IMG/VR virus record: IMGVR_UViG_3300012979_000039
Location: 9,055 to 73,054 of that record
Strand: one strand, 5' to 3'
Source of the DNA: a virus
Taxonomy: Duplodnaviria; Caudoviricetes
Length of the DNA stretch: 64,000 nt
Of the stretch, positions 10,529-55,158 are shown piece by piece; the first letter of the stretch is position 1, and every line of letters starts with the position of its first letter. Made by a program: the position numbers and the translations under genes. The notes under the pieces were generated by a model that saw only the letters and a program-made list of their open reading frames with translations, was not told the origin of the DNA and did no database searches.

Positions 10529-10635
10529 ATCCGTGTAGTATTTATGGTTTATTTCGTTTTTCTTTCTTATGTAATAGGTTTATACCTTTTTGTCTTTTGA
10601 ACCGTGCAAAGACGAGCAATACAGCTCTTGCAGGG

Positions 10636-10643
10636 CAAATTTA
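10636..10643 (-). promoter_or_regulatory. -7 promoter element for the ARH gene
   Basis: TAAATTTG followed by CCCTG on the minus strand, the same context as the repeated early promoter. Confidence 0.5.
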
Positions 10644-10661
10644 ATAAATAGTTCGCAAGAG

Positions 10662-10919
10662 CTAAACTTTATTTAAGGCTTCCTTGAGTGCTTCGATAAG
10701 CTCCAGGTGGTCATACGACCTGTTCAAGTCAATCCCATTTACTATGTGCGGTTCTCCTGCGAGTTCCATTGCTGTGATCGGTCTGTCTTTCTGCGCAATC
10801 TGCCAACGGGTGCCATAATCTATTGGCACGAAAGTGAACAGGTAATAGTCGCCTCCGTTTCTTTTGTTCCATTCTCTGAACAGCTGTGAGAGATATTGGT
10901 TAATTCCGTTGATATTCAT
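10662..10919 (-). CDS. Hypothetical protein
   Basis: Part of a tightly packed minus-strand operon. Confidence 0.6.
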   Translation of the reverse strand: MNINGINQYLSQLFREWNKRNGGDYYLFTFVPIDYGTRWQIAQKDRPITAMELAGEPHIVNGIDLNRSYDHLELIEALKEALNKV

Positions 10920-11156
10920 CTATCCTAAAATAATGTATTCGTTAATTGCTTTCTCAGATGTGATTCCGTGAGGGAGAGCTGCATCGTATATCGATCCATC
11001 AAATATCTTGTCAGCTGGAGTAAACGAGAAAAATAACTCGTGATATTCATTGCCTTCGTCATCACGGCTGATAAGAATCTTCTTATCTCCGTATCCATTT
11101 TTGATAGCTGCTTCGCAATACTTTTGAAGCTGCTTGACTGTTATTGCTCGTATCAT
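10920..11156 (-). CDS. Hypothetical protein
   Basis: Packed operon; abuts its neighbours. Confidence 0.6.
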   Translation of the reverse strand: MIRAITVKQLQKYCEAAIKNGYGDKKILISRDDEGNEYHELFFSFTPADKIFDGSIYDAALPHGITSEKAINEYIILG

Positions 11157-11159
11157 ACC

Positions 11160-11591
11160 TTAATCCGTTACTTCGTAGAAATACGACATTGCGTCCTCGT
11201 TGTCCTTGTTTGCTTCGCAGTAAGCATCGTGCGCTTCGTAAAACAAGCCTCTGTAAAGTTCCCGGAGTTCTTTGTTGCCATGTTCGTGATGCTCCCAGCA
11301 CTTGTGATTGAGGACAAGGACAAGTTCTGTTCCATAGACCGTATTCTTTATCCATTCCTTGACTGACCTGTCGAATGTCTTGCGTATTGCCCCATTGTCA
11401 TTCATGCGGCATTCGCAAAACTCCGCAATCGAGAAGTCTTGGAAGAATGTGGTCTGCGTTTGATAGCCTGAGAGTTTATTCATGACCCCATTGAACATTT
11501 CCTGTTCCATTGCGGCATACTCAACAACTGTCATTGGGTATGGAATGCGAAGCGGCATCGCCGCATACTTGATTTTTTCTGTTGTGCTCAT
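11160..11591 (-). CDS. Hypothetical protein
   Basis: 143 aa; TAATACTACACG motif upstream of ATG. Confidence 0.7.
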   Translation of the reverse strand: MSTTEKIKYAAMPLRIPYPMTVVEYAAMEQEMFNGVMNKLSGYQTQTTFFQDFSIAEFCECRMNDNGAIRKTFDRSVKEWIKNTVYGTELVLVLNHKCWEHHEHGNKELRELYRGLFYEAHDAYCEANKDNEDAMSYFYEVTD

Positions 11592-11613
11592 TATCGTGTA
11601 GTATTAGTTGTTG

Positions 11614-11844
11614 CTATGACCTGTAAAGCGAATAGAGCGTAGTTTTGTCAGTTTTGAAGTTGCTATGAACTGATACATTGTTCACTCCAATCTCCTTGAC
11701 AAGTTCCTCATAAGTCGGGTCGTAAATATTGAGGACAAACTCAATACCTTTAGGATGTGCGTTAAAAGCAAAATCGATGTCGTGCTTCATTAGCACTTTA
11801 GCAATTAGCAGGCAGTTGCCTGTAAGTCTGAAATACTGGTTCAT
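11614..11844 (-). CDS. Hypothetical protein
   Basis: Packed operon. Confidence 0.55.
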   Translation of the reverse strand: MNQYFRLTGNCLLIAKVLMKHDIDFAFNAHPKGIEFVLNIYDPTYEELVKEIGVNNVSVHSNFKTDKTTLYSLYRS

Positions 11845-11845
11845 A

Positions 11846-12265
11846 TTATTGAATTGTTAAAATTTCTGCCTTGCGCCTTTTAGCCATTTTCTCGGCTTCT
11901 TTGCGACCTCTTTCTGTGTCAAGATAAGCCTCTATCCATATCGGGTGCTCTTTGCCTTTCTTATACACTAAAAGCGACCCTCTTGGGACTTTTCTTATCT
12001 GCCCGGAAGCTAACTCAACACGCACAATCTCTCGGTAGTCTGGGTGTAGCTCATATACTATTCCATGCAGGATTGAATCATCCATAACGTCAATGTCACG
12101 TGACCAATCTTCAATCTTTGACCGGCTGCCTGATGCGTCAATCCTCTTGCCTATATAGCTATGTGTTGCGTAGTCAATACCTGTAACGAAATATATGACC
12201 TTTACTCTCTCGTGATCTCTGTATTCATCCACGAACTCAAATGCTTTCCCAACTATTGATTCCAT
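11846..12265 (-). CDS. Hypothetical protein
   Basis: 139 aa; packed operon. Confidence 0.6.
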   Translation of the reverse strand: MESIVGKAFEFVDEYRDHERVKVIYFVTGIDYATHSYIGKRIDASGSRSKIEDWSRDIDVMDDSILHGIVYELHPDYREIVRVELASGQIRKVPRGSLLVYKKGKEHPIWIEAYLDTERGRKEAEKMAKRRKAEILTIQ

Positions 12266-12271
12266 ACTGTG

Positions 12272-12496
12272 TTATTTTATCTGTTTGTACCTGCCATTAG
12301 CGACTGCTGCTTCAAATGCTTCAATGTCGCAATACCAAACATCGGTGTATCGCAAATTGCCGCATATGATGTCTTTTGTGCCGTAGTAACAGTCGTCTGT
12401 TACAATGGCGCCCGCCTTTTCGATTCCCTCTATCTTGTAGATAAAAGTCGTCTTGCCGAACTTGAACTCAAATCGCTGTCCTATTCTCTGTGTCAT
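12272..12496 (-). CDS. Hypothetical protein
   Basis: Start moved to ATG 12496 (MTQRIG) to remove the overlap with the upstream gene. Confidence 0.55.
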   Translation of the reverse strand: MTQRIGQRFEFKFGKTTFIYKIEGIEKAGAIVTDDCYYGTKDIICGNLRYTDVWYCDIEAFEAAVANGRYKQIK

Positions 12497-12503
12497 AACC
12501 GTG

Positions 12504-12908
12504 TTAGTTAAAAATCCAATATCCATAGACACACCTTGTGCCTTTTCTGCTGCAATCGTAAGTGTCATTGATCACTCCGTCAATGACTGCGACCAAGTGA
12601 CCTGAGCAACTACATACGATTCTGCCTTTCGGCAATTCCTCTGCCCGGAGGTGGGTTTTGCAACCGCTTCCGATTGTCATACAAGGCACCCATTTTGCTC
12701 CGAGCTGTTCCATTACCTTGCGGATAGCCGTCTTGCTTACCCCGTCTCTTGGCGTTTTACCGCCTATCTTTTTATACAGGTTATATACCTCCTTGTAGTC
12801 CCTTTGACTTGCTATTGCGGTTGCTCTGGTAACGCAATCGCCAACCTTCTTTGCTGTGAAATAATTGCTACGACCTCCGTCGTTGTAGTTAAACCGTGTA
12901 GTGCTCAT
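12504..12908 (-). CDS. Phage protein with a putative papain-like Cys-His-Asp triad
   Basis: GDCVTRA ... SGHLVAVIDG..NDTYD pattern. Confidence 0.5.
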   Translation of the reverse strand: MSTTRFNYNDGGRSNYFTAKKVGDCVTRATAIASQRDYKEVYNLYKKIGGKTPRDGVSKTAIRKVMEQLGAKWVPCMTIGSGCKTHLRAEELPKGRIVCSCSGHLVAVIDGVINDTYDCSRKGTRCVYGYWIFN

Positions 12909-12920
12909 TTTGATATAGCA

Positions 12921-13301
12921 TTAAAAATTGAACTTGTAATCTATGTGTCTATAAACCCAGCCCTTTTCGGTGCGCTTAATAGCGAATGAGTAGCCCCAAT
13001 TTGGGCGGTAGCTCTCGCCCTTTCCTTCCTCTTTAAAGAACCTCTCCCAATAATTCGCCCTGAAGTTCGGGTCTTCGAGATTATTGCCCCAGTAACATCT
13101 GCTCTCCGAGGGAATGCAGAATATTGTTTCCCCAACCTTGAGTTCCCTGACGGCATCCATACACTCCATTAACGAGCGCATTCCAAACATTCCTACTGAG
13201 GTGTTCATCTGCTGGATAATGATGAATCCTCGCAGATTACTGAACTCATCTGCCTTGAATCTAAGGCTTCTCTTTGTGTCAAGTGTGAGTGTCGCTTCCA
13301 T
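12921..13301 (-). CDS. Hypothetical protein
   Basis: Start at ATG 13301 (MEATLT), preceded by ACTACACG; avoids overlap with 13312..13698. Confidence 0.6.
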   Translation of the reverse strand: MEATLTLDTKRSLRFKADEFSNLRGFIIIQQMNTSVGMFGMRSLMECMDAVRELKVGETIFCIPSESRCYWGNNLEDPNFRANYWERFFKEEGKGESYRPNWGYSFAIKRTEKGWVYRHIDYKFNF

Positions 13302-13311
13302 AGTCGTGTAG

Positions 13312-13698
13312 TTATTTGATGATTCTTTCCTCTCCTGATTCGTTGATGAAGTAACCCATAAGGTCGTGTCCATTATGACCTCCGTAATAGCCGTGCTGAT
13401 AAGACACTCCAATATTGAAGGCCACTCCCATTTCCTCGTCAGGGTCATTTGCCCAGACATCCATGCGGAGTTCCACCTTGGCGAAAAGTTGCTTTAAGAT
13501 TGCGTTGTTCCTCATCTTATTGTCAATATCATTCAGAGTGTCTATCGCTTGAATATAAATACCACCATTGTAGCGTTTTCCAAGCTCAAACTTGAGATTT
13601 ACCTTAACTCCGAGAGTTTCCTTGATAGCCTTTTCGACTTTTGCCTTGCACTGACTTTCGATGAAAGCGAGTACCTTTTCTGCGTGTTCCTGTGTCAT
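13312..13698 (-). CDS. Hypothetical protein, first gene after early promoter copy 1
   Basis: 128 aa; CTTAATACTACAC leader. Confidence 0.7.
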   Translation of the reverse strand: MTQEHAEKVLAFIESQCKAKVEKAIKETLGVKVNLKFELGKRYNGGIYIQAIDTLNDIDNKMRNNAILKQLFAKVELRMDVWANDPDEEMGVAFNIGVSYQHGYYGGHNGHDLMGYFINESGEERIIK

Positions 13699-13725
13699 TG
13701 TTGTGTAGTATTAAGAATGTTTATG

Positions 13726-13788
13726 TTATAATCACAGGGCAAAATTAATAATTATTTTAAAATAATAAAAATTTCTTACGGAAAATTT
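13726..13788 (-). promoter_or_regulatory. Repeated early promoter/operator module, copy 1
   Basis: 63 bp identical to 18403..18465; TAATTTTG -7 element on the minus strand; 16-bp palindrome ATTATTTTAAAATAAT at 13751..13766. Confidence 0.85.
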
Positions 13789-13840
13789 GGCAAAATTTTT
13801 AACTTTCCCTGAGAAGACCAAAGAAAAAGCACCGCTGTCG

Positions 13841-15265
13841 TCAGAAATTGACAGCGATGCCTTGTTGTCTTATGCTCTGCTTCCAGTCTTTGCGTTGGCA
13901 GATATCACGGATTTGCCACATATTAGAATTGACGGCGTTCAGGATTTCCTCGTGCCGGTCAGTCGGCTGGTTGTGCTTGCCGTAGCATTGATTGACTTTG
14001 AAGTCTCGGAGATTGATCTCGATGGTTTCAAGTCGTTCCCCTTTTCCGTCCCTCGCAGAAAGGATAAGGCTGAGAGGTTTCTTGTAATATCCCATTGAAT
14101 AGACGCAATGGTGCATTGCAATACCTTCCTCTGCAAATTCTTCTACCGATTTTAGCGGCTCAATGCTCAAGTCTTTGTCTTGGATATGGATGCCGAAGAA
14201 GAAGCCTTTTAATGACGGATAAGCGGCTCGTATCTTCTCGTCCTCTTGCTTCCGCTTGATAGCCTCAGCTTCTGCTCTTGCTTGTCGGCGAGCCTCTGCA
14301 AGTTGGTACAGTTCCCTCTGGCGTTGCTGCTCTTTCTCGCGTTGTCTCTGCATCATGTGCAAAACCTTGCCGTGCATTTCGTGCCAATCCTGTGGACATA
14401 TCCAATGCGGAGAGCGAAGATCCTTTTTCAACTTCTTCAACATCAAGAGGTAGTCGATGTAGTTCTGCCATCCCACTGCCTTTATATCGTATTTGTGTCG
14501 CAAAGCAATTCTTATGCTTGGGTACATATCAGTTATATGCTTGCGTGCATCAGGCGGTATATCGCGGATTTCTTGGTATCTGCCCTGCTTATATAACTGC
14601 TCAAGGTAGGGGTTGGAGAGAATGACGCCGAAGGTCTGTTGCACATCGTTATCAAAGGGGTTTCCATTGAATCCGCATTTGCGGTAAACAGGTAGCGTTT
14701 TCCAACGAGGATAGACTTTCAAGTACATCCATTCGGTGTGGTAGCCGGCGCCTCGCCACTCTCCTTTCTTGATGCTCATTGCACTACATAGACTGTAAGG
14801 CGACCGGCAGGAGTATGACATCATATTGATACCTACGCCCTGTGTGATTTCCGTATGATGCGGCTTGTACCACTTCCGCATTACCTCTCGGACATAGTAT
14901 TTGGCACCGCTCTTTACAGACCAATCCATTCGGACTTCGTAGTAGCGATTGACCTGCCAGCCCTTATGTACCGTCAAGACGACAAAGTAAAAGCACTCCT
15001 TGATACCTCGCCGTTGGTAAGACTTCTTTATTTCCGCTCCACAGCAAGGACACTCTATGACAGCCTCCGATATGTCAGCACGAACTGCCTCGATTGGTAT
15101 TCTGTTCCCGCAATGGGTGCAATAGCACCGCGTTTCTGTGGGATTTACCCACGCAAAATGCTTGACGGCATTCTTGATCGCCCAATCGTATTGAGCCTGA
15201 GATAGCCGCCTTAAACTGCCCGAAAGACGGCTAATCTCTTTCTCTACTTTTGTCTTGGGTTTCAT
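13841..15265 (-). CDS. pcfJ: PcfJ-like protein
   Basis: N-terminal CxxC zinc ribbons; C-terminal EEGIAMHHCV..Y..ILSAR..ETIEI motif. Confidence 0.85.
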   Translation of the reverse strand: MKPKTKVEKEISRLSGSLRRLSQAQYDWAIKNAVKHFAWVNPTETRCYCTHCGNRIPIEAVRADISEAVIECPCCGAEIKKSYQRRGIKECFYFVVLTVHKGWQVNRYYEVRMDWSVKSGAKYYVREVMRKWYKPHHTEITQGVGINMMSYSCRSPYSLCSAMSIKKGEWRGAGYHTEWMYLKVYPRWKTLPVYRKCGFNGNPFDNDVQQTFGVILSNPYLEQLYKQGRYQEIRDIPPDARKHITDMYPSIRIALRHKYDIKAVGWQNYIDYLLMLKKLKKDLRSPHWICPQDWHEMHGKVLHMMQRQREKEQQRQRELYQLAEARRQARAEAEAIKRKQEDEKIRAAYPSLKGFFFGIHIQDKDLSIEPLKSVEEFAEEGIAMHHCVYSMGYYKKPLSLILSARDGKGERLETIEINLRDFKVNQCYGKHNQPTDRHEEILNAVNSNMWQIRDICQRKDWKQSIRQQGIAVNF

Positions 15266-15267
15266 AA

Positions 15268-15702
15268 TCAGAATAGGCTTGGCATTTCTTCCTCTTTCTT
15301 CAACGCTTCCTGACGCTTCTTCTCCACTCTCTCCTTTTCTTTCTTCTCCTTCTCCATGAGTTTGCGTAGTTCCTCTTTCTTGAATGCTTCAATTGCGTCA
15401 GCCTTTGCTTTTGCCTTGTCCTCCTCTGTCAGTTCGACCTTGTGGTTCACGACAACCGTGCCCTTAACCGCTTTGATTTCTCCGAGATCATCTTCCTCGT
15501 AGTAATGCACAGCCATTCCGAAAATCTCATCATCGGTAAAGCCGTTGCAGCCTGACTTTTGAACCGAGCTGAGGATATAGTTACAGCATTCCTCAATGCT
15601 CTTGCCCTCTTTGGCATACTTCTGTGCGAAGTTGTCGTCAAAGCCCGCAAGGTTATCCAAGTGGGCTTTGATTGTTCTTTGAAATTCCTGTGTAGTATTC
15701 AT
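15268..15702 (-). CDS. pcfK: PcfK-like / AcrIIA9-family anti-CRISPR candidate
   Basis: KSIEECCNYIL..V.KSGCNGFTDDEIFGMAVHYYEED and VVVNHKVELTEEDKAKA; paired with pcfJ. Confidence 0.8.
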   Translation of the reverse strand: MNTTQEFQRTIKAHLDNLAGFDDNFAQKYAKEGKSIEECCNYILSSVQKSGCNGFTDDEIFGMAVHYYEEDDLGEIKAVKGTVVVNHKVELTEEDKAKAKADAIEAFKKEELRKLMEKEKKEKERVEKKRQEALKKEEEMPSLF

Positions 15703-15708
15703 TTTGTG

Positions 15709-16068
15709 TTAGTCTTGAAGATGTAGAATAGATTTTGCTACTTCTGTGCAATATCGCATCCTTTCAGCTGGGATCATTTTGTTCCACATAAACTTTTTGA
15801 TATAGCCCCAGAATGAGCAACCTCTCTTGTCGCAAGTAGGGGAGTCAATTACTATGTATTTCCCTTTGTTAAAGTCAACGTAAGCATTGATATACGCAAT
15901 CTTATTATGGTGCAGCTCTGTCTTACCGTTACGCTTTGCCCAGTCATTATAAGGCTCAATATTGACTTTTACATTCTCGTCAGAGAAGAACCATTTGAGG
16001 CTGTCGTATAGCTCTTTTGCAAGCGGTTCTATCTCTGACGGTTCTCTGTCTTTGTAGTATCCGTTCAT
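15709..16068 (-). CDS. Hypothetical protein
   Basis: Packed operon. Confidence 0.6.
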   Translation of the reverse strand: MNGYYKDREPSEIEPLAKELYDSLKWFFSDENVKVNIEPYNDWAKRNGKTELHHNKIAYINAYVDFNKGKYIVIDSPTCDKRGCSFWGYIKKFMWNKMIPAERMRYCTEVAKSILHLQD

Positions 16069-16370
16069 CGCTCTATCACTTTAAGCTCAGAAGCAACCAC
16101 CTCGTAATAAACTCTCTCCGTTCCATTCGCTGATGTATATATTTGCTGACGAAGCCTGCCGATAACTTTAACAACATCACCTTCCCCGACTTGTGTCTTC
16201 TCCCAAGCGACGACATTATGCCAGGTGCCCTCGCGGATAATAGAGCCGTCCTTTAATCTATTCAAATGCTCTGTATAAAGGGAGAAATTCTGAACGGTCA
16301 TTCCCTGCACATGGTTGGTCCTTACACAGCCAACGCTTCCTTGCAATTCGATTTTGTTTATAAATTCCAT
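16065..16370 (-). CDS. Short SSB-like OB-fold protein lacking the acidic tail
   Basis: NKIELQG, WHNVVAWEK, VKVIGRLR..Y and EVVASEL motifs; 101 aa. Confidence 0.75.
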   Translation of the reverse strand: MEFINKIELQGSVGCVRTNHVQGMTVQNFSLYTEHLNRLKDGSIIREGTWHNVVAWEKTQVGEGDVVKVIGRLRQQIYTSANGTERVYYEVVASELKVIER

Positions 16371-16383
16371 ATTAAGTAGTCCA

Positions 16384-16629
16384 TTAATCCTGTTTTTGTG
16401 ATATCCTCGTGACCTCTTGCTTGATAATCCTGCATTTTGTCGTCACCTTTGCGTTAGTTTGAGTGATATGAGCAGCGTATAGGGCACCAAGTGATGTTCC
16501 TATATGCTCCTGTCCAAACTGGGCGAAGATCGCCCGTAAACTGCCGAAATAGTAATCGGTCTTACCTTCTACCGGTTCAAAGAAATGAACCTGAATAATC
16601 TGGCTTTTTGATGTCTTTTCTTTGCTCAT
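16384..16629 (-). CDS. Hypothetical protein
   Basis: 81 aa ORF in the operon. Confidence 0.6.
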   Translation of the reverse strand: MSKEKTSKSQIIQVHFFEPVEGKTDYYFGSLRAIFAQFGQEHIGTSLGALYAAHITQTNAKVTTKCRIIKQEVTRISQKQD

Positions 16630-16640
16630 GTTGTGTTGTG

Positions 16641-16793
16641 TTAATTGGTTAATTCTATCTTATACCATTCTACCTCCGGCTCGTCAAGCCCAAAAAACTG
16701 AATGATATAAGCCTCTGATTTGTCCCCTGTGAAATAAGTTGTTCGTGGTGTCGGTTTGCCTACCTCCTTGTAAGTGATTCTGTACTTTTTCAT
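16641..16793 (-). CDS. Small protein (50 aa, MKKYRITYKEVGK...) missed by the ORF track
   Basis: Open ATG..TAA frame read by hand; ACTTAATACTACAC leader. Confidence 0.65.
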   Translation of the reverse strand: MKKYRITYKEVGKPTPRTTYFTGDKSEAYIIQFFGLDEPEVEWYKIELTN

Positions 16794-16907
16794 ATTGTGT
16801 AGTATTAAGTGTGTCTCAAAAGAAAACCCGATAGTTTTGCCCAGATTGAGCGAAATGAAGAAGTTTACTAGTGTGCAAGATGAGAACCTATCGGGTTTAT
16901 ATATAAT

Positions 16908-17813
16908 CTATTCTTCCTTATTTCCGTCAAAGATGTAATCCACCGCTTTCTGCGCCTGTCCCGCGGCAATCACTATCATCTTCTTGTCATTCTTCAAGGC
17001 TTCGAGCCATCCCTGCAAGTATGCAACCGAGTTCTTGAATGCCTTTTCGCAGTCAATGCCCAAACGGTTAAGCGTCATTGCTGAGCCGATTTCTGCTACA
17101 AGCTCCTCCTTTGCGTAGGATACATCTCCGAAGGCGGCCACTCCGTCAATCTTGCGGTTGCACCTGGTGCCTATTCCCGTACTGTGAGTGAGTTCGTGAT
17201 AAAGTGTGGAATAGTATTCCTCGACAACCTCATACTGGGAAAGTTCAGGGACAACGACCTTGTCCTCTTTTGGCGAATAGTAGGCCCTGTCGCTGTGTTC
17301 AACTACGAGTGTCAGTCCGTCTTCCCTTTCAACATATTCTTTGGCGACCCTTTCCGCTTCCTCTATTGGATTATGGGTGTTGCCCGTCTCCCTCTCTATT
17401 TTGCTCTCAATACCCTCGATGTCGTCGATGTGGAAAACATTGTAGAATCGAAGAACCGGATAGCCGTAATTAGTTATAACGGTCTTGACCTTGCCCGTCT
17501 CTTCCCCCGTTTCTTCGTCAATCTCCTTAACTTTCTTCTGATTGATCACGGTATAGAATACTACCATCTTTGCTTTTGCCCCTTTCTTGACCTGACCTCC
17601 GAGAGCGGACGCCTGCTTGTATGTGAGGTATTCGCCCGGCTTTCCGAGCAGCATCTGATTCAGGAGAGAATAAGGTCTGCGGGAGACATAACTGATTGCT
17701 TCTTCCGAGCCTCCGCACCAAGGCTTCTGCCAAGGAATGATGCCCTTCTCCATTTCTGCGATGATGTGTTCAGTAACGATGTCGTAAACATCTACTTTGT
17801 TCTTCTGTGCCAT
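16908..17813 (-). CDS. ardC: ArdC-family anti-restriction ssDNA-binding protein (zincin-like domain)
   Basis: YDIVTEHII..MEKGIIPWQKPW, HELTHSTG and EELVAEIGS motifs. Confidence 0.9.
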   Translation of the reverse strand: MAQKNKVDVYDIVTEHIIAEMEKGIIPWQKPWCGGSEEAISYVSRRPYSLLNQMLLGKPGEYLTYKQASALGGQVKKGAKAKMVVFYTVINQKKVKEIDEETGEETGKVKTVITNYGYPVLRFYNVFHIDDIEGIESKIERETGNTHNPIEEAERVAKEYVEREDGLTLVVEHSDRAYYSPKEDKVVVPELSQYEVVEEYYSTLYHELTHSTGIGTRCNRKIDGVAAFGDVSYAKEELVAEIGSAMTLNRLGIDCEKAFKNSVAYLQGWLEALKNDKKMIVIAAGQAQKAVDYIFDGNKEE

Positions 17814-17835
17814 ATCCGTGTAGTAGTTAAATGAT

Positions 17836-18024
17836 TTATATTTCTTCTTCCAATTCTTCCTTAGTCATATAATTCTTGACGAGGATTCTTCCGCTTAGAT
17901 AGCAAATGCCAAGCATCGAAAACGACCAAATCAATTGTAATATTGCTGTTTCTGCTTCCGCACATGCAAGGAATAAACTCATAAGGCATACAATGCCAAG
18001 AACGGTTTTCATAATCTCTTTCAT
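17836..18024 (-). CDS. Small membrane protein
   Basis: Two hydrophobic stretches. Confidence 0.5.
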   Translation of the reverse strand: MKEIMKTVLGIVCLMSLFLACAEAETAILQLIWSFSMLGICYLSGRILVKNYMTKEELEEEI

Positions 18025-18374
18025 TGTTCATCCTCCTCATCATTAGTTGTTTCACATTCCTGTAATCTGTCAAGCTCCACTGCGTCCATTGACCAGTATC
18101 GCTTTGCTCTGCGGAGGCACCCTCTCCAGAAAGAAAGCCAATCTTTTGCGTCGTCCTCGTCAAGCATCGTTTCTTGGTTGAGTTCTTCATCCTCTGTCCA
18201 AGTGAGAATACCTTTTTCTGTCATGTTGAAATGCCTTACGTTCCTTGTAGTAAAAGCGTCTTCATAAAGAGCGATCTCACCTGCTTCGTTTACGTCAGAT
18301 TCTTTTGCAAAAGCTTCGAGGTCGTCATTGAACCTTTCCCAAGCCTTGATGTGTCTGTTGCTAATCTTTGTCAT
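18021..18374 (-). CDS. Hypothetical protein, first gene after early promoter copy 2
   Basis: Start at ATG 18374 (MTKISN), preceded by ACTACACGG. Confidence 0.65.
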   Translation of the reverse strand: MTKISNRHIKAWERFNDDLEAFAKESDVNEAGEIALYEDAFTTRNVRHFNMTEKGILTWTEDEELNQETMLDEDDAKDWLSFWRGCLRRAKRYWSMDAVELDRLQECETTNDEEDEQ

Positions 18375-18402
18375 TTCCGTGTAGTGTTTAGAAGTGTTTG
18401 TA

Positions 18403-18465
18403 TTATAATCACAGGGCAAAATTAATAATTATTTTAAAATAATAAAAATTTCTTACGGAAAATTT
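18403..18465 (-). promoter_or_regulatory. Repeated early promoter/operator module, copy 2
   Basis: Identical to 13726..13788; palindrome at 18428..18443. Confidence 0.85.
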
Positions 18466-18620
18466 TATGCCTATTTTATAATATTGTATAATGCAAGCAA
18501 AGCTCTACTATGCTAACTTATTGAAACTTAATAAGAACAAAGTGATTATAATGTAATCGAAAAAATAGAAAAAAGTTTTACCTTTGAGGTGTTTAATTAA
18601 AAATCTTTTCTATTTTTGCG

Positions 18621-19753: not shown

Positions 19754-20854
19754 ATGAGTATGCAGACTTCAATGTTTGGTTCATTCATAACCAAGTTCTT
19801 CGGTAGTGTAGTTGGCAAGCTCACTGAGCTTTTCAACGGAAGAAAGGAACAGTCACCTTACCTCTATGAGCGTATGCTTGACGAGGAGTATAGTGCTGAC
19901 CTCACTTGGAATACTTCCGAGTTCGACAACTCAATCGTAGCGGCGGATGTAGTCTCTATGGACTCTTCACTTCCGCTCAAGAAACGCGGCACAATCCGCA
20001 CAGCAAGCGGTGACATTCCTAAGCTGGGTATCAAGAAGCAGATGCGCGAGAAAGCTATCTCCGATGTCGCTGTAATGCAGGCAAAGGGAGTCCAGGCTTC
20101 AGATATCGCTTCAAAGATTCTCAATAATGTGCCGAAGGTAATCTCTGGTATCAAGATCCGTCTTGAGATTATGTTCGAGCAGGCTCTCTCGACCGGACTT
20201 GTTCTCGTGGCTAACGATACTAACGACGGAACAGGAGTTCGTGCTGACTTCGGTTACAAGGCGACGCACAAGTTCAAGGCCACCACAGACTGGAAGAACG
20301 TGGGCACAGCACAGCCTGTGACAGACCTTCATAAGATGTTCGACCAGGCAGACGCTGACGGTGACACCATCGCAAAGGTAATGTTGTCAAAGCAGTACTT
20401 CGACCTTGCACGAAAGAGTTTTGAGGTGCGTGAACTTGTAGCCACTTCACTCAAGCAGACCATCGTGGACGCATCTTATCTTCCTACTCCTACCCGCAAG
20501 GCGACTATTGACGCTCTTGAAGAGGAGTTCGGCTGTACTTTCGAGATTGTCAACGGTTCATTTGTAACCGAAGACGAGGCTGGCAAGAAGACTACCGTGA
20601 AACCTTGGGAGCAGGGTAATGTTGTCGGTCTTACATCTGAAAAGGTCGGCCGTCTTGTACATGGTACACTTGCCGAGGATATGCGCAGGGTTCCGGGCGT
20701 GGCATATGAGAAGTCAGGATTCATCCTCGTTTCCCAGTACAGCCACAACGAGCCTTCGCTTGCCGAATTTACCGCAGCACAGGCTCTTGCTATGCCGGTA
20801 ATCGACAACGGTGGCAATGTATATGTCCTCGACGCAACAGCAGCAGCAGAGTAG
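19754..20854 (+). CDS. Major capsid protein (lambda E-like)
   Basis: 366 aa; AADVVSMDSSLP..KR, IPKLGIKK and RLE.MFEQALSTG motifs; position. Confidence 0.8.
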   Translation: MSMQTSMFGSFITKFFGSVVGKLTELFNGRKEQSPYLYERMLDEEYSADLTWNTSEFDNSIVAADVVSMDSSLPLKKRGTIRTASGDIPKLGIKKQMREKAISDVAVMQAKGVQASDIASKILNNVPKVISGIKIRLEIMFEQALSTGLVLVANDTNDGTGVRADFGYKATHKFKATTDWKNVGTAQPVTDLHKMFDQADADGDTIAKVMLSKQYFDLARKSFEVRELVATSLKQTIVDASYLPTPTRKATIDALEEEFGCTFEIVNGSFVTEDEAGKKTTVKPWEQGNVVGLTSEKVGRLVHGTLAEDMRRVPGVAYEKSGFILVSQYSHNEPSLAEFTAAQALAMPVIDNGGNVYVLDATAAAE

Positions 20855-45490: not shown

Positions 45491-45650
45491 TTTATGTGCT
45501 ATATTTGCAGCATATCGCTCTCGGAACGATTGACTGGCTATCCGCTTGCCGTTAAAGCGGACAAAGAAAAACTAATACAAATAAAGACTACCAATCAATT
45601 ATGCATTAGTTCTATGGGGAAGGGTTCAGGCCTTTCCCTTTCTTTTTCCT

Positions 45651-45714
45651 AAAAAGGGTAGCCCTCTGCGGCTCACAGAAAGCACGGCAAAGGGCTACTT
45701 AATACTACACGGTT
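45651..45714 (-). ncRNA. Predicted ~64-nt sRNA antisense to the shared early-gene leader motif
   Basis: Own promoter (TTTG-N19-TACCTTTG); 5' AACCGUGUAGUAUUAA unpaired; 12-bp stem GUAGCCCUUUGC/GCAGAGGGCUAC followed by CCUUUUU. Confidence 0.75.
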
Positions 45715-45717
45715 CGG

Positions 45718-45748
45718 CAAAGGTAAACTTTTTAGTTTACAAGTCAAA
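45718..45748 (-). promoter_or_regulatory. Consensus Bacteroidetes promoter driving the sRNA
   Basis: -33 TTTG at 45748..45745, 19-nt spacer, -7 TACCTTTG at 45725..45718. Confidence 0.8.
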
Positions 45749-45751
45749 GAT

Positions 45752-46987
45752 TTACTTGCTTTTTCGGTAATCCTTGCCGTAAAATATATAGTCTATTATC
45801 TTTCTGTTTGCGTCATCTACAAGGTCGTTGTCGTAATCTATATATATATCAGTTACTTTCAATCCGAAACTGTGCCCCATGCCTCTGCTTATCACCTCTT
45901 TGGATATGCCTATCTTCATTGCTACGGTAGCCCAAGTGTGGCGTGCCCAGTTTGAACTCAAGTCCGGGAAGATGCCTTTCCCAAGAATCTTGCCGCGTTT
46001 GCCGAGCGGTCTGCCGATAGCCTTGAGCCCGTCATTGAAATGATGTAGATAGTCCTTATAGTCGTCATACGAGTCCATAGGGTTGAGCAAGGTACCTCTG
46101 CCTTTGTACTTTTCAATGATCGCGATTGCCTCTGGCTCCAGTTTGACAGACAGAGGTGTTCCCGTCTTGTTTCTTCGGTAATCTAACCTGCCGTTGGACA
46201 CCTGCTGTGCAGTAGCAAGGAAAAGGTCTCCGGCATTGATTCCGCGAAGAAGGAACATGAGGATAAACATATCGCGATACTGCTCTTGATAAGGCTCGCA
46301 CTTGGCATTTAAGAGGCTTTTGAGTTGTTCCGGCATAAGTGCCTTCTTCCGCGTATTCTCTTGTCTTAACGGGTACTTTCTGAAAGGATACAAGGTTGTT
46401 ATGCCCGCGTTGATTGCATCGTTGAATACGGCTCTTATGTTTCTCAGGTGGATATTCCTGCTGTTCTTCTTCTCTGTCTTGGAACAAAAGGACTCGAACT
46501 CCCGAAGATAGTCGTTGGTTATATCCTCAAACGAGCGGGTTGCAAGATTAGAGTCATATGCTTCTAACTTTCGGAGAGTATAGGCATACAGCCCTCTTGT
46601 CCCGTCATTGCCCTTCAGTTCCATGAAGCGAACAAAACGGAATCGGAACATATGGCTTTCCTCTATTTTCCGCTTCTTGTCAGGGTCTATGATGTCAATT
46701 ATCTTGTCACGAAGTTGATATGCAGTTAATCCTCCGCTTTCCCCGTTTTCCACCAGCCGCAGGATAGCGGAATCTATCTCCAATCTCTTCTTGTTAAGGA
46801 TAAGATTGATTCTTTTGGCATTCGGATGATTTACCACCTCCTTTCTTGTCGTACTCCACTGTTGCACTGTTACCTTGATACCTGTATTGATATAAGCCGC
46901 CTTGCCGTTCTTCCGTATAGCAAATTTCAGAGGAACCGGTTGATTTTCCTGAACCGCTCTGGCGTCGAAGTAGATTGTTATTGTCAT
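45752..46987 (-). CDS. int: Tyrosine integrase (Bacteroidetes type: arm-binding, SAM-like and catalytic domains)
   Basis: LLRGINAGDL, RNKTG, ARHTWAT, MGH and IYI catalytic motifs; start at ATG 46987 (MTITIY). Confidence 0.93.
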   Translation of the reverse strand: MTITIYFDARAVQENQPVPLKFAIRKNGKAAYINTGIKVTVQQWSTTRKEVVNHPNAKRINLILNKKRLEIDSAILRLVENGESGGLTAYQLRDKIIDIIDPDKKRKIEESHMFRFRFVRFMELKGNDGTRGLYAYTLRKLEAYDSNLATRSFEDITNDYLREFESFCSKTEKKNSRNIHLRNIRAVFNDAINAGITTLYPFRKYPLRQENTRKKALMPEQLKSLLNAKCEPYQEQYRDMFILMFLLRGINAGDLFLATAQQVSNGRLDYRRNKTGTPLSVKLEPEAIAIIEKYKGRGTLLNPMDSYDDYKDYLHHFNDGLKAIGRPLGKRGKILGKGIFPDLSSNWARHTWATVAMKIGISKEVISRGMGHSFGLKVTDIYIDYDNDLVDDANRKIIDYIFYGKDYRKSK

Positions 46988-48498: not shown

Positions 48499-48699
48499 AT
48501 GATTACCGGAATCAAGCCAAACGTGAACAAGGAGCGCAGGTATTCAGTGCCTGAGACCTATACACTTCTTGGCATCAATCGCAAGACACTGATGAAGTAC
48601 ACGGAGCGGCAGCAGATTATCCCAATCGTACACTCGGCTAATAACCGCCTATACTACACGGGAGAAGAAATACTCCGCTTCTGGAACGCAGTTTCATAA
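48499..48699 (+). CDS. Excisionase-like (MerR-type HTH) protein
   Basis: RYSVPETYTLLGINRKTLMKY..YYTGEEILRFW. Confidence 0.75.
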   Translation: MITGIKPNVNKERRYSVPETYTLLGINRKTLMKYTERQQIIPIVHSANNRLYYTGEEILRFWNAVS

Positions 48700-48723
48700 C
48701 ATTAACATTTTAATACTACACAA

Positions 48724-49584
48724 ATGGAAACATTACAAGTGACTCAGATTCAGAGAGCAGAAACACTTGAAGCTCTCAATCGTTCTGAAATCGACATCCA
48801 GATTTCAACAGCAAAGAAGTTCCCTCGTTCAGTGGAACAGTCAACCAAGAGGATAATGGCACTTGCCACTATTGATGAAGAAACCGCACAAGAGTGCTTT
48901 TACTCCCTCCGCAGGGGCAAAGGCGAAAGTGCATCAGCAGTAGAAGGACCGAGCGTAAGACTTGCGGAGATCGTCGCAGCATCTTGGGGCAATCTCAGAG
49001 TTCAGTCGCAGGTTGTGAGCAATGACGGCAAGTTCATCACAGCAAGGGGTATATGTCACGACCTCGAAACTAACACCGCAGTATCTTGTGAAGTGCAGAG
49101 AAGAATCACTGACAAGTACGGCAAGACATTCAGCGAAGATATGCAGGTCGTTACCGGCAACGCGGCTGGCGCAATCGCCTTTAGAAATGCCGTATTCAAG
49201 GTAGTGCCAAAGGCAGTGATAAACAATACCGTCAAGGCAATCAAACAGGTGGCAATCGGTCAAGCAAACAATCTTGAGGAACGCAAGAGCAATATGCTCA
49301 AGTTCTTTGCTTCTATCGGCGTGACAAGGGAAATGGTGCTGTCGTACCTTGAGGTCGAGGCAACCGAGCAGATAGATATGGAAATGGTAATGGAAATGGT
49401 TGGTCTTGTCAACGCAATCAAGGAAGGCACGACCACAAAGGAGGAAGCCCTTATCAATCCATACAACGAGAAGATGCGCAGCAAGACCGCTACAAAAGCA
49501 GCAACAGCAACACAGAGCAAGGTCGCAGCAGCATTGCAGAAGCAGGGCGAGGGAATGTTTGAAGATGATCTTCCAAACGCATAG
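48724..49584 (+). CDS. Putative single-strand annealing/recombination protein
   Basis: EIDIQISTAKKFPRS and GPSVRLAEI; adjacent to the YqaJ gene. Confidence 0.6.
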   Translation: METLQVTQIQRAETLEALNRSEIDIQISTAKKFPRSVEQSTKRIMALATIDEETAQECFYSLRRGKGESASAVEGPSVRLAEIVAASWGNLRVQSQVVSNDGKFITARGICHDLETNTAVSCEVQRRITDKYGKTFSEDMQVVTGNAAGAIAFRNAVFKVVPKAVINNTVKAIKQVAIGQANNLEERKSNMLKFFASIGVTREMVLSYLEVEATEQIDMEMVMEMVGLVNAIKEGTTTKEEALINPYNEKMRSKTATKAATATQSKVAAALQKQGEGMFEDDLPNA

Positions 49585-49611
49585 AGGGCAGCTACTTAAT
49601 ACTACACGCAA

Positions 49612-50580
49612 ATGGCTAATTTCACAATCAGAGCCAATAATCACAAAGAGTGGTTGGAGGCAAGGAAAGGAGGTATCGGTGCATCAGAGATAGGCACCAT
49701 CCTCGGTGTCAATCCATACGACACTCCTTATCAGTTGTGGCTCCGCAAGACAGGCAGAGTACAGGAAGTAGAGAGCGAGAACTTCCTAATGAAAGCGGGA
49801 CACTATCTTGAAGATGCAATCTCAAAGTTCTGTGCCGATGAAACCGGCATCGAGATCATCAAGCGTTCCGCAGAGGAGTTCGTCGTAGTCAATCAAGATA
49901 AGCAGTTCCTCCGTGTTAGTCCCGACCGATATGCTTGGCTGCCTAATGCGAAGCACACACAAGATAACAAGGTTGTCGTTGAATGCAAGTCAACACAGAA
50001 GCAGATATTCGATGATGATATTCCTCTCACTTGGTTCACGCAGGTGATATATCAACTTGGCGTGTGCGAAATGAATCAGGCATATCTTGCTTGGCTGACA
50101 CAAGGCAGGGACTTCGGATATAAGCATATCGTTTTTGACAAGGACTTCTACAATGATGTAATCGTTGCGGAAATCGAAAAGTTCTGGGTTGATAACATCC
50201 TCGGAGACCAGGAGCCTGCTCTTTTGAACATCGAAGATGTGAAGAGAAAGTATCCGATTCACAATGTCGGAAAGTCAGTCGAAGCGACAGATGAACTCCT
50301 TGACAGGTATCACACTCTTGTCGATGTGAATGCAAAGATAAAGGAACTTTCGGCTATCAAAACAGAGGCCGAGAATGCCCTCAAATTTGCCCTTCAAGAC
50401 GCGGAAAGTCTAATTATACCAGCGACAAACGAAATGCCGTTCAAGACCCTTGCTACTTGGAAAGCAGCCAAGGAATCAAGCAAGTTCGACGAGAAGGCAT
50501 TTGCAGCGGAGAATCCAGAACTGTATTCAAGATATATGGTCACTACTCCGGGCAGTCGCAGATTCATGCTTAAACAGTAA
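49612..50580 (+). CDS. YqaJ-like viral recombinase/exonuclease
   Basis: EWLEARKGGIGASE, SPDR, ECKST and QVIYQLGV motifs. Confidence 0.9.
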   Translation: MANFTIRANNHKEWLEARKGGIGASEIGTILGVNPYDTPYQLWLRKTGRVQEVESENFLMKAGHYLEDAISKFCADETGIEIIKRSAEEFVVVNQDKQFLRVSPDRYAWLPNAKHTQDNKVVVECKSTQKQIFDDDIPLTWFTQVIYQLGVCEMNQAYLAWLTQGRDFGYKHIVFDKDFYNDVIVAEIEKFWVDNILGDQEPALLNIEDVKRKYPIHNVGKSVEATDELLDRYHTLVDVNAKIKELSAIKTEAENALKFALQDAESLIIPATNEMPFKTLATWKAAKESSKFDEKAFAAENPELYSRYMVTTPGSRRFMLKQ

Positions 50581-52466: not shown

Positions 52467-52555
52467 ATCGGGGTGGTTGCACACCCTTAACGGGAGGATT
52501 TCTCACTCCTGAAATACCTTTACGAAAGTGGTTTGTAGGTAGTTATGTCGGATAG
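52467..52555 (+). ncRNA. tracrRNA-like scaffold copy B / array leader
   Basis: GGGTG-GTTGCA-CACCC hairpin with loop complementary to the repeat end TGCAAC; ATACCTT complementary to repeat AAGGTAT. Confidence 0.7.
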
Positions 52556-52747: not shown

Positions 52748-52794
52748 GAGGACAATTTTATCTTATCTAAACAAATTGTTTAATAAATAGGCAA

Positions 52795-52974
52795 ATGGAA
52801 ATATTAAAAAAAGGAACAACTGAACATTTCCCGAAAAGGAAGTTTACTTGCCCCGACTGTGGGTGTGTATATATAGCGAAATGGAACGAGGTAAATAAGT
52901 TTCCAATACCTCATACTATTTGCCCGACCTGTGAAAGACAAATAGATTGGGCGGACGGTGCGGATATAGAATAA
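52795..52974 (+). CDS. Small zinc-ribbon protein (59 aa) missed by the ORF track
   Basis: CPDCGC ... CPTC; ATG..TAA read by hand. Confidence 0.7.
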   Translation: MEILKKGTTEHFPKRKFTCPDCGCVYIAKWNEVNKFPIPHTICPTCERQIDWADGADIE

Positions 52975-52985
52975 AGCATATCAAA

Positions 52986-53648: not shown

Positions 53649-53923
53649 GAGTTATCCGACACATCAACAAGGTTATTCGCAAGCAGGGAGTATATAGTTG
53701 CGTGGTTGCTGAAATCTATGATTCATCTTTGAGAAAAATAACGAAGCACGCACCGGCTTGGTATGAGACTACTTGGCACGATGACCGTATCCTTGCTCTC
53801 CGATTCTTGAGAAGCAAAGGCTATGTGGTTAGTGTGCGACAGCAATGGGCGAATAGTCCGTCCTACTTCAAAGGAGAATTGTTCTATATGAATATGACAA
53901 GGATATCAATTAGTAAACCGTAA
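53615..53923 (+). CDS. Hypothetical protein
   Basis: Operon. Confidence 0.5.
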   Translation: MGKRESKRRVLRVIRHINKVIRKQGVYSCVVAEIYDSSLRKITKHAPAWYETTWHDDRILALRFLRSKGYVVSVRQQWANSPSYFKGELFYMNMTRISISKP

Positions 53924-53929
53924 TGAGAT

Positions 53930-54112
53930 ATGAAAAGACTGTTTTTTAGACTGCGGTACTACCTGTATAAAGAGAAAGACCGCAATGGCCGGTGGGCGAT
54001 AATCGTCCGCGACAAAAGAAAGAAGAAAGAGTACATCCTTTGCGAGAAGTATCTTGCAAAGAAAAGTGCCGAGGATAGAATTAAGGAGATATATAAAGAA
54101 GGAGAATGGTAG
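53930..54112 (+). CDS. Hypothetical protein
   Basis: Operon. Confidence 0.45.
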   Translation: MKRLFFRLRYYLYKEKDRNGRWAIIVRDKRKKKEYILCEKYLAKKSAEDRIKEIYKEGEW

Positions 54113-54113
54113 T

Positions 54114-54296
54114 ATGAAGCACATTGAAATATCATGCAACTCGCTTGCAGAGTGCTATGCACGATTAAGAGACTGCGATTTGATTTATGTCTCCGACCTC
54201 GGCAAGAAGTCGAAGGTTGTGATTGACATAGACACGGACTCGCCATTCGATGGGTCGTTTATCAATATACCAGAGTGTGAGGAGGAAAGGTTATGA
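54114..54296 (+). CDS. Hypothetical protein
   Basis: ATG 54114; stop overlaps the next start. Confidence 0.5.
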   Translation: MKHIEISCNSLAECYARLRDCDLIYVSDLGKKSKVVIDIDTDSPFDGSFINIPECEEERL

Positions 54297-54682
54297 AAAC
54301 GCTTGACTTAGTATTGAAGCGAAAGTGGTTTGAGATGATCGCATCCGGGGAAAAGACCGAAGAGTATAGGGAGATCAAGCCGTACTGGATAAAGAGGCTT
54401 ATAGAGGAGAGAGACCCTGCACATCACGACTACTATGAGAAAATAACAAGCATTCGTGCTGAGTTCTTTTCCGATAGAGTCATTATGTTACAGTATTACT
54501 TGGAAGAAGGTTTTGTTAGACGCAAGAACTATGACACTGTGACATTCTACCTCGGCTACTCAAAAGACCGACCTTCGATGACGTTCAAAATAAAAGACAT
54601 CGTTATTTCAAGAGGGAAGCAAGAATGGGGTGCAGTATATGGAGAATACTATTTTGTATTAAAATTAGGAGAAAGATTATGA
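54293..54682 (+). CDS. ASCH/PUA-like domain protein
   Basis: LDLVLKRKWFEMIASGEKTEEYREIKPYW motif. Confidence 0.8.
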   Translation: MKTLDLVLKRKWFEMIASGEKTEEYREIKPYWIKRLIEERDPAHHDYYEKITSIRAEFFSDRVIMLQYYLEEGFVRRKNYDTVTFYLGYSKDRPSMTFKIKDIVISRGKQEWGAVYGEYYFVLKLGERL

Positions 54683-54888
54683 AGAACGTAAACACAGGAA
54701 TACTCCTCACGCCAACAGAAGCGAGAGGTATTGCGGACATATTGAGACTAATCGCAAATATGGAAGACTATGACGAGATTATTAGCGAGGACATAGAGGA
54801 TGAACGTAAGTCTGCAAAAAGGCTCTATAACCGCCTCTATCCGTTGCTTCTAATGGGATTCTTAGAGAAAATCCAAGAGAGCAGGTAG
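54679..54888 (+). CDS. Hypothetical protein
   Basis: ATG 54679 coupled to the ASCH stop. Confidence 0.5.
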   Translation: MKNVNTGILLTPTEARGIADILRLIANMEDYDEIISEDIEDERKSAKRLYNRLYPLLLMGFLEKIQESR

Positions 54889-54905
54889 GGAACTAAAATA
54901 TTGCC

Positions 54906-54993
54906 CATTTTTATAAGAAAAATTTTTATTATTTTAAAATATTTTATAATTTTGCCCGGTGATTATAATACAAACACTCTAAACTACACGAAA
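54906..54993 (+). promoter_or_regulatory. Repeated early promoter/operator module, copy 3 (inverted, diverged)
   Basis: Closely matches the reverse complement of 18375..18465; TAATTTTG at 54947..54954; TATTTTAAAATA palindrome. Confidence 0.8.
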
Positions 54994-55158
54994 ATGGAAA
55001 CAATCACTACACGGTATCTCGTACAGCTTAACGGCAAGGGAATCAAGATGGGTAAAAAGAAATTTTACTCAGAAGAAGAACAAGACGCTTTTGAAAAGCA
55101 GATGGAATCGAAGTTCGCTCGCAATGAAATGGACTTGGTTGTTGTAATGTTCCGCTAG
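54994..55158 (+). CDS. Small protein (METITTRY...)
   Basis: ATG after promoter copy 3, with an ACTACACG leader. Confidence 0.65.
   Translation: METITTRYLVQLNGKGIKMGKKKFYSEEEQDAFEKQMESKFARNEMDLVVVMFR

Follow-up and report, generated by a model that had tools for sequence, protein, structure and literature searches.

The window analysed here is a stretch of 64,000 nucleotides from the 73-kb genome of a temperate phage of gut Bacteroidales, in which most genes lack a Shine-Dalgarno sequence. It contains a tyrosine integrase gene, whose homologues are assigned to Arm-DNA-bind_5 and Phage_int_SAM_5, and, immediately 3' of this gene, a separate unit for a predicted small RNA (sRNA) which is convergent with the late operon. 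A short tag with the consensus (C)TTAATACTACACGG is found at the starts of about fifteen early genes. One early promoter/leader cassette is present in three copies, and the first cistron behind each copy is a tagged gene. The features are given below, with positions in the window.

10531-10542, minus strand: 12-nt tag, 2 nt before the ATG of an ADP-ribosylglycohydrolase gene (9758-10528); predicted duplex with the sRNA -18.6 kcal/mol
11595-11606, minus strand: 12-nt tag preceding the ATG of a 143-aa gene (11160-11591)
12892-12902, minus strand: 11-nt tag inside codons 3-6 of a 134-aa gene (12504-12908)
13305-13312, minus strand: 8-nt tag, 3 nt before the ATG at 13301, backing the start of a 126-aa gene (12921-13301)
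13703-13715, minus strand: 13-nt tag in the leader of a 128-aa gene (13312-13698), 3' of early promoter cassette 2
15690-15699, minus strand: 10-nt tag inside codons 2-5 of a PcfK-like gene (15268-15702)
16370-16379, minus strand: weak 10-nt site overlapping the ATG of an SSB-like 101-aa gene (16065-16370); predicted duplex -13.5 kcal/mol
16797-16810, minus strand: 14-nt tag preceding the ATG of a 50-aa gene (16641-16793)
17816-17825, minus strand: 10-nt tag preceding the ATG of an ArdC-like anti-restriction gene (16908-17813)
18377-18385, minus strand: 9-nt tag in the leader of a 117-aa gene (18021-18374), 3' of early promoter cassette 1
45651-45713, minus strand: predicted sRNA of about 63 nt with unpaired 5' seed, hairpin and U-run
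45718-45748, minus strand: predicted sRNA promoter with -33 element TTTG (45748-45745), 19-nt spacer and -7 box TACCTTTG (45725-45718)
45752-46987, minus strand: gene for the tyrosine integrase (411 aa)
48651-48661, plus strand: 11-nt extended copy away from a start, located within a 66-aa gene towards its 3' end; the next tagged start follows after about 60 nt
48710-48721, plus strand: 12-nt tag preceding the ATG of a 286-aa gene (48724-49584)
49591-49608, plus strand: 18-nt tag preceding the ATG of a YqaJ/RecE-like exonuclease gene (49612-50580); predicted duplex -28.7 kcal/mol
54983-55015, plus strand: two tags of a 54-aa gene (54994-55158), 8 nt in the leader and 10 nt in codons 5-8, 3' of early promoter cassette 3

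The 7-mer ACTACAC occurs 23 times on the two strands of the 73-kb genome, where the mean for a 7-mer is 8.9, and 12 of these 23 copies lie 0-8 nt 5' of the opening ATG of an ORF with 50 aa or more. With about 110 genes, chance would give roughly 0.03 placements before an ATG for one given 7-mer. Among all 16,384 7-mers ACTACAC ranks first for placement before an ORF-opening ATG, and the following ranks are taken by words overlapping with it. This bears out a sequence-only reading of the same DNA, in which the motif had been proposed to mark the starts of early genes. All fourteen sites listed there are present with exactly the lengths given above, which were scored as contiguous match to the plus-strand sequence 45694-45713. 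The list was incomplete, as two tagged starts beyond the window (genome 1121-1131 and 1943-1952) and two extended copies away from gene starts (48651-48661 and genome 3247-3258) have to be added. In a count against a shuffled control, 16 matches to the 5' end of the sRNA with a length of 9 nt or more were found at gene starts, compared with 1.1 for shuffled seeds; none of 300 shuffles equalled this number.

The tags lie 0-6 nt before the ATG or inside the first codons, and their strand polarity relative to the gene is strict. Start-associated copies of ACTACAC reach 8-18 nt of perfect complementarity to the sRNA; five copies in late or other ORFs (19812, 26564, 31326, 36054 and 52283) match over 7 nt and no more. 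As already noticed from the sequence, no tag is found at the starts of the structural and lysis genes (18621-45417), and none was found in the host genes which flank related prophages. Some of the tags are short (8-9 nt). The three intragenic tags all read ACT-ACA, an observation which with n = 3 is not significant and to which we give no weight. It had also been claimed that the tag reveals the true starts of mis-annotated ORFs, and several start-codon calls can indeed be corrected in this way, for example to the ATG at 13301.

The functions of the tagged genes include replication, recombination and anti-restriction. The tagged set comprises a DnaD/O-like replication initiator and a DnaC-like helicase loader (the two genes beyond the window), the YqaJ exonuclease and its upstream partner, ArdC, PcfK, the ADP-ribosylglycohydrolase and small uncharacterised proteins. 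The 286-aa partner gene upstream of the exonuclease is a candidate annealase, by position only. Anti-defence and recombination genes, as the targets had been described before, are thus among the tagged genes, but the tags of the replication initiator and the helicase loader show that this description does not go far enough.

The predicted sRNA promoter begins 4 nt past the integrase stop codon and 6 nt upstream of an antisense copy of the tag. Only three perfect promoters of the Bacteroides form TTTG-N17-22-TAnnTTTG exist in the genome (146 kb scanned), and the sRNA promoter is one of them. Judged from sequence and fold, promoter and intrinsic terminator bracket a putative short non-coding RNA. 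Its 5' seed ACCGUGUAGUAUUAA (45713-45699, about 15 nt) is complementary to the tag and is followed by a GC hairpin (45698-45658) and CCUUUUU. The predicted fold has an energy of -28.4 kcal/mol (z = -4.25) and leaves the 5' 18 nt unpaired, and the boundaries of the tag match this unpaired part. For the tagged starts which were computed, predicted sRNA:tag duplexes have energies between -12.4 and -28.7 kcal/mol, whereas the median for the genome is -7.9 kcal/mol. The weakest site is 16370-16379, which pairs with the stem-proximal part of the sRNA. No Rfam family matches the sRNA. Its hairpin could also act as terminator of the integrase gene or as a bidirectional terminator.

Close relatives of the locus are L115, L117, L124 and L125, the last being a 1.5-kb metagenome contig which carries the sRNA; their integrases are 77-85% identical. 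In the four to five relatives compared, among them these four, the -33 and -7 boxes are invariant, and variation is found in the promoter spacer and in the 5-6 nt preceding the predicted transcription start. Conservation of the sRNA begins at this predicted start, and its body is invariant except for one compensatory change of a stem pair (C-G to U-A) and one other change. Some relatives have a short U-run behind the hairpin, of four U (L117) or three U (L125). L117 keeps the tags at orthologous starts, while the flanking bases and the distance from tag to ATG differ: the tag at 48710-48721 is conserved despite altered spacing, the YqaJ tag at 49591-49608 is intact next to differing bases, and both tags of the 54-aa gene are conserved. 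One additional tagged gene of L117 is absent from the phage studied here. No relatives were found in the phage collection searched by DNA or protein, in IMG/VR searched with the integrase, or in the species genomes searched with an integrase profile. Exact sRNA strings were not found in IMG/VR and the species genomes, and a 14-mer scan of IMG/VR gave chance matches only.

Three further lineages (L128, L131 and L223) have a similar unit with a different seed, and their early-gene starts carry correspondingly different tags. In L128 the seed UAAUGUAAUGUUUU is located behind TTTG-N19-TATCTTTG at the integrase stop, and AAA(A)CATTACATTA is found at four early starts (5 matches versus 0.42 in shuffles, equalled by none of 300). 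L131/G001 has the seed UAAUGUGAUUUUUGU; the 12-mer AAAATCACATTA occurs in six exact copies where 0.004 are expected, one of them being the sRNA locus, and three exact copies, like two further copies with one mismatch, lie directly at the ATG of an ORF with 100 aa or more. For L223, with the seed CGUAAUGUAAUUAAG, tags of the type TTAATTACATTAC at early starts number 8 versus 0.35, again with none of 300 shuffles equal. Support from L129 is weak (2 versus 0.33, with 11 of 300 shuffles equal), and the unit with its tags was not found in L126, L127, L161 and L163. In L161 and L163 the integrase is followed by a promoter, a long 5' region and a terminator, but convincing tags are absent. Two start motifs from a k-mer screen of the related loci, GCTCTGGCTATGG in L127 and CTGCTAC in L128, were discarded as tandem repeats within coding sequence. 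A generic screen for a -7 box with antisense matches at starts was too noisy to be used (background of 2-5 matches), and its outlier L201 was explained by self-overlap with a gene start.

The related seeds and their tags differ at identical positions. Such covariation is predicted by RNA-RNA pairing and is not predicted by a generic translation enhancer. It is the key evidence for a predicted sRNA that reads the tags. Together with the promoter, the unpaired seed, the hairpin with U-run and the conservation, it supports the candidate sRNA regulon which had been suggested from the sequence. We therefore consider it likely, as far as sequence comparison can tell, that a trans-acting sRNA of about 63 nt pairs with the tags, by which it would silence the tagged early genes in the lysogen.

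The tag might instead be the RNA site of a protein, either a translational repressor or activator like RegA of T4 or a nuclease like RegB, and the copy beside the integrase would then be an extra site or a decoy. RegA operators sit at the translation starts of early genes, and the tags resemble them in being strand-specific and located at such starts. The copy next to the integrase, read on the plus strand, is a sense tag, and different lineages could have proteins of different specificity. We nevertheless regard this explanation as unlikely, because it does not account for the antisense copy which in at least four lineages lies 4-8 nt behind a canonical -7 box, with a hairpin and a U-rich tail after it on that strand. 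Nor does it explain why conservation sets in at the predicted transcription start and why the tag has the boundaries of the unpaired part of the fold. On the plus strand of the window the copy lies past two terminator-like hairpins, and no gene comes after it. Among the tagged and neighbouring proteins there was no match to an RNA-binding family and no candidate for such a protein.

Less likely still is that the tag works independently of any sRNA, enhancing translation or recruiting ribosomes as an element private to this phage and its early genes, in an organism mostly devoid of Shine-Dalgarno sequences. The fixed short distance between tag and ATG, the G-poor and unstructured nature of the tag and the many genes of this genome without Shine-Dalgarno sequence would suit such an element. 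However, the tag is missing from all late genes and from the host genes beside related prophages, some tags lie within the first codons, and the antisense unit is left without explanation. In addition, homologous genes of related phages bear entirely different tags, as would not be expected if the tag paired with a fixed site on the ribosome. That the repeats act at the DNA level, as boundaries of cassette exchange or as sites of a DNA-binding protein (integrase arm sites or operators), is very improbable: the tags do lie at gene boundaries of a mosaic accessory region, and the gene present in L117 and absent here is tagged, but the strict strand polarity, the spacing of 0-6 nt to the ATG, the tags embedded in codons and an attachment site on the opposite side of the integrase gene speak against it, and it does not predict covariation with an antisense copy behind a promoter.

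In the proposed sRNA mechanism, the phage RNA would be made from the host-type promoter directly 3' of the integrase gene, and its unpaired 5' end would pair with the tags. This pairing would block the landing site of the ribosome and thereby repress translation, and it would probably also destabilise the mRNA. To our knowledge, Bacteroidota have no Hfq. The junction of the L115 prophage is upstream of int, so that the sRNA remains inside the prophage. Because of this location and of the constitutive-looking, host-type promoter, the sRNA is likely to form a post-transcriptional layer which dampens leaky early expression in lysogens. Probably this one sRNA silences all tagged genes together. 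It may also act on incoming phages of the same seed class and in this way provide an RNA-based immunity specificity. After induction, a burst of tagged early mRNA would titrate the sRNA out.

The closest known systems are the c4 antisense immunity RNA of phages P1 and P7 and the ordinary base-pairing sRNAs. The c4 RNA (Rfam C4, RF01695) belongs to immI (Citron and Schuster 1990, reviewed in PMC12197685). Like the sRNA in our proposal, c4 is phage-encoded and acts in trans on mRNA of its own phage at the ribosome binding region; it is part of the lysogenic immunity circuitry, and its variants set immunity specificity between related phages, as we propose here. c4 is processed from the transcript of the operon it controls and has one target operon. 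The present unit, in contrast, is separate and linked to the integrase gene, 3' of it and outside any target operon, it has about fifteen dispersed targets including genes for replication, recombination and anti-restriction, and it comes from a phage of a different host phylum. The C4 covariance model gave no hit at the gathering score in the whole window and none at E-values up to 10 in the region 45560-45790.

sRNAs of the GibS and MasB type are transcribed from a -7-box promoter of their own, end at an intrinsic terminator and use an unpaired seed to act on the translation initiation regions of several mRNAs. GibS and MasB are trans-encoded base-pairing sRNAs of Bacteroides (transcriptome atlas, PMC10994844). 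They share with the predicted sRNA the promoter type, the terminator, a seed which targets starts, and a phylum without Hfq. Whereas they are chromosomal, serve host metabolism and match their targets imperfectly, the predicted sRNA is phage-borne, its known targets all lie in its own genome, and its tag is nearly identical among them. The RegA regulon of T4 offers another parallel, since a single phage factor acts there on a short element over many early start codons and causes their joint shut-off. RegA is a protein; the recognising factor proposed here would be an RNA, acting in a temperate phage. Other phage-encoded base-pairing sRNAs are VpdS (VP882), PreS (lambda) and STnc6030 (BTP1), of which STnc6030 mediates superinfection exclusion by pairing with a phage transcript; the passages of this review considered here describe neither more than ten tagged start regions in a phage's own early genes nor a phage of Bacteroidota (PMC12197685).

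More tentatively, integrase-linked sRNAs whose seeds diversify together with start tags may represent a widespread and so far undescribed system of RNA control and immunity in temperate Bacteroidota phages. One RNA would silence the phage genes for replication, recombination and counter-defence in a lysogen, and the pair of seed and tag, rather than a protein repressor alone, would set mutual exclusion between related phages. As far as we know, gene regulation in gut Bacteroidota phages is almost unexplored, and we know of no Shine-Dalgarno-led initiation in Bacteroidota. One sRNA and at least a dozen early genes with the same tag make an unusually clean case that lends itself to direct testing, and the natural variants of seed and tag are ready compensatory mutants. 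Short portable tags with their matching RNAs would, if the proposal is true, provide orthogonal translational switches for the engineering of Bacteroides. For the biology of these phages it would show that replication, recombination and anti-restriction are timed or silenced post-transcriptionally, and it would suggest that immunity specificity is defined by RNA.

The window, bases 9055-73054 of a virus record of 73,054 bp, has a GC content of 45%, and the promoters of the phage are of the Bacteroides TAnnTTTG type. For homologues of the integrase and of the 286-aa early protein the source names are exclusively Bacteroidales metagenome proteins, and related prophages are flanked by ordinary Bacteroidales-type host genes. 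Most genes of the phage genome lack a Shine-Dalgarno sequence. A strong AGGAGG is found on a few genes of this Bacteroidota-type phage (1320-1333, 19735-19753, 43275-43290 and 57225-57242), including a 366-aa late gene at 19754 with a high coding score. The regions and cassettes discussed here are:

9465-18374, minus strand, second early/accessory block
13695-13795, minus strand, early promoter/leader cassette
18370-18470, minus strand, early promoter/leader cassette
18621 to 45417, plus strand, late genes
45651-45713, minus strand, predicted sRNA of about 63 nt
45752-46987, minus strand, tyrosine integrase
from about 47270 onward, after the integrase, lysogeny/early region
54900-54995, plus strand, early promoter/leader cassette

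Counting both strands of the genome, the word ACTACAC occurs 23 times (mean for a 7-mer: 8.9), and 12 copies lie 0-8 nt 5' of an ATG opening an ORF of at least 50 codons. In this placement it ranks first among all 16,384 7-mers, the next three words overlapping the same motif, which bears out the proposal of the sequence-only reading that the motif marks translation starts. All 14 sites listed by that reading were recovered, each with exactly the contiguous identity to plus strand 45694-45713 that it had reported. It had also seen no tag at structural or lysis genes, and indeed no late gene start is tagged. The extended tag consensus is (C)TTAATACTACACGG. At start-associated copies identity extends over 8-18 nt, some tags having just 8-9 nt, while in the five copies within late or other ORFs it ends at the 7-nt core. 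Two extra tagged starts lie beyond the window (genome 1121-1131 and genome 1943-1952, coordinates of the whole record).

The tagged genes encode a DnaD/O-like replication initiator, a DnaC-like helicase loader, an ADP-ribosylglycohydrolase, PcfK, the anti-restriction protein ArdC, a YqaJ/RecE-like exonuclease, the 286-aa protein upstream of this exonuclease, an SSB-like protein (weak site) and several small proteins without assigned function. An early promoter/leader cassette of about 90 nt is present in three copies, and each time the first cistron after it is a tagged gene. In all three an AT-rich upstream part with a palindrome comes first, then the -7 box TAATTTTG, the leader GUGAUUAUAAUACAAACA, the tag and the ATG. 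The palindrome ATTATTTTAAAATAAT is perfect over 16 bp and a candidate operator; the same transcripts may therefore be controlled both by a repressor and by the RNA. The longest-ORF starts at 12921-13460, 18021-18419 and 54901-55158 are probably wrong: as suggested before for mis-started ORFs, the tags support the ATGs at 13301, 18374 and 54994 as the true starts.

Two further copies stand apart. An 11-nt copy (ATACTACACGG) at 48651-48661 (plus strand) falls within the 3' part of a 66-aa gene. The tagged start at 48724 follows about 60 nt further on, and the copy could give that mRNA a second place to pair. A 12-nt copy (TACTACACGGTT) at genome 3247-3258 occupies the minus strand of an intergenic gap that two plus-strand genes border. 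There (locus L210, genome 3240-3300, outside the window) GTGATTATA and a 9-bp hairpin precede the tag copy and no ORF follows; read on the plus strand, this stretch looks like another seed-like sequence with a hairpin after it.

The only long-form copy away from any gene start is 45694-45711. On the minus strand, starting 4 nt past the integrase stop, a promoter TTTG-N19-TACCTTTG is followed by six bases, CGUGUAGUAUUAA, a 41-nt hairpin and CCUUUUU. The genome has just three perfect TTTG-N17-22-TAnnTTTG matches, this promoter among them. In the predicted fold (-28.4 kcal/mol, z = -4.25) the first 18 nt, which include the seed complementary to the tag, are unpaired. No Rfam family matched the region at the gathering score or at a loose threshold. 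On the plus strand a separate hairpin with a T-run (about 45619-45650) appears to terminate the convergent late operon.

Through integrase homologues of 77-85% identity four more versions of the locus were obtained (L115/L116, L117/L118, L124 and L125). In their alignment both promoter boxes are invariant, whereas variation is found in the spacer and in the five or six bases that precede the predicted start. From this start to the hairpin end only three columns are variable, two of which form a compensatory C-G to U-A stem change; the U-run is short in two relatives. In L117 tags are kept at orthologous starts, with different adjacent bases and tag-to-ATG spacing, and one additional gene is tagged. 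The L115 element is an integrated one whose integrase has host genes immediately upstream; therefore the attachment site is on the other side and the RNA unit stays in the prophage.

Syntenic phages found through 286-aa homologues (59-65% identity) lack ACTACAC at the homologous starts. In one of them, L128, TTTG-N19-TATCTTTG past the integrase stop leads into UAAUGUAAUGUUUU, a free 5' end unlike that of the window phage, then a GC hairpin and a tail rich in U. Four early starts carry the complement of this seed with matches of 11-14 nt, namely those of a 63-aa gene, an HTH gene, the 286-aa homologue and SSB; at SSB, with a G-U pair, the pairing continues past the AUG as far as the base predicted to start the RNA. 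Five start sites were observed versus 0.42 with shuffled seeds, a number reached by none of 300 shuffles. L128 also has a second seed-like sequence, AUGUAAUGUU, at the 3' end of an mRNA: it forms the stop region of a late 86-aa gene (5090-5140, plus strand), and a GC hairpin and U5 come after it.

In L223/L224 the unit lies some 550 nt away from the end of the integrase and consists of a TACCTTTG box, GCGUAAACGUAAUGUAAUUAAG, a hairpin and a U-rich tail; TTAATTACATTAC-type tags occur at the 286-aa homologue, SSB and several other early starts (8 observed versus 0.35 for shuffles; 0 of 300 reach this). A partial tag ACATTACATT directly 5' of the integrase gene's own ATG (L223 7640-7660, minus strand) hints that the RNA of this lineage may also touch integrase expression. 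In L131, an IMG/VR record of 34.5 kb, fold prediction places an unpaired segment UAAUGUGAUUUUUGU between two hairpins. The 12-mer AAAATCACATTA has six exact copies in this record versus 0.004 expected: one is the RNA locus, three adjoin the ATG of ORFs of 138, 290 and 107 aa, and the remaining two lie in tandem at a mini-ORF of 17 codons. ORFs of 271 aa and 109 aa each have a one-mismatch copy next to their ATG. L128, L131 and L223 have recognisably related seeds, whose differences fall where the tags differ. L129 has the same anatomy with two short start matches only (11 of 300 shuffles reach this), and no sRNA unit was found in L126, L127, L161 and L163. In the unrelated phage locus L201 (32% GC), four genes in a row have TAAAACTTGACAA-like sequences 2-6 nt 5' of their ATG (6447, 6854, 7176 and 8212, plus strand), a different start-associated motif or possibly a -35-like box.

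Neither a generic translation enhancer nor a DNA-level repeat nor a protein operator predicts that in several lineages the odd copy is antisense and lies 4-8 nt after a canonical -7 box, that conservation sets in at the predicted transcription start, or that the tag has the same boundaries as the segment left unpaired in the fold. All of this, as well as the covariation between lineages, is predicted by a base-pairing small RNA, which, judged from sequence, is the probable explanation of the tags. Because the pairing (-15 to +1, or the first codons) falls inside the ribosome footprint, its most likely effect, by analogy with established sRNA mechanisms, would be repressed initiation.

A 2025 review of phage small RNAs covers c4, sar, PreS, VpdS, STnc6030 and others (PMC12197685); the passages retrieved from it by term search mention neither a Bacteroidota phage nor a regulon in which over ten start regions among the early genes of the phage itself share a tag. 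Our literature search found no published description of such an sRNA/start-tag system. Given the consensus host-type promoter and the retention in the prophage, in lysogens the sRNA would probably mute leaky expression of early genes. Incoming phages that share its seed class could be a further target; the divergent seed/tag pairs among these related phages recall the c4-based heteroimmunity of P1 and P7.
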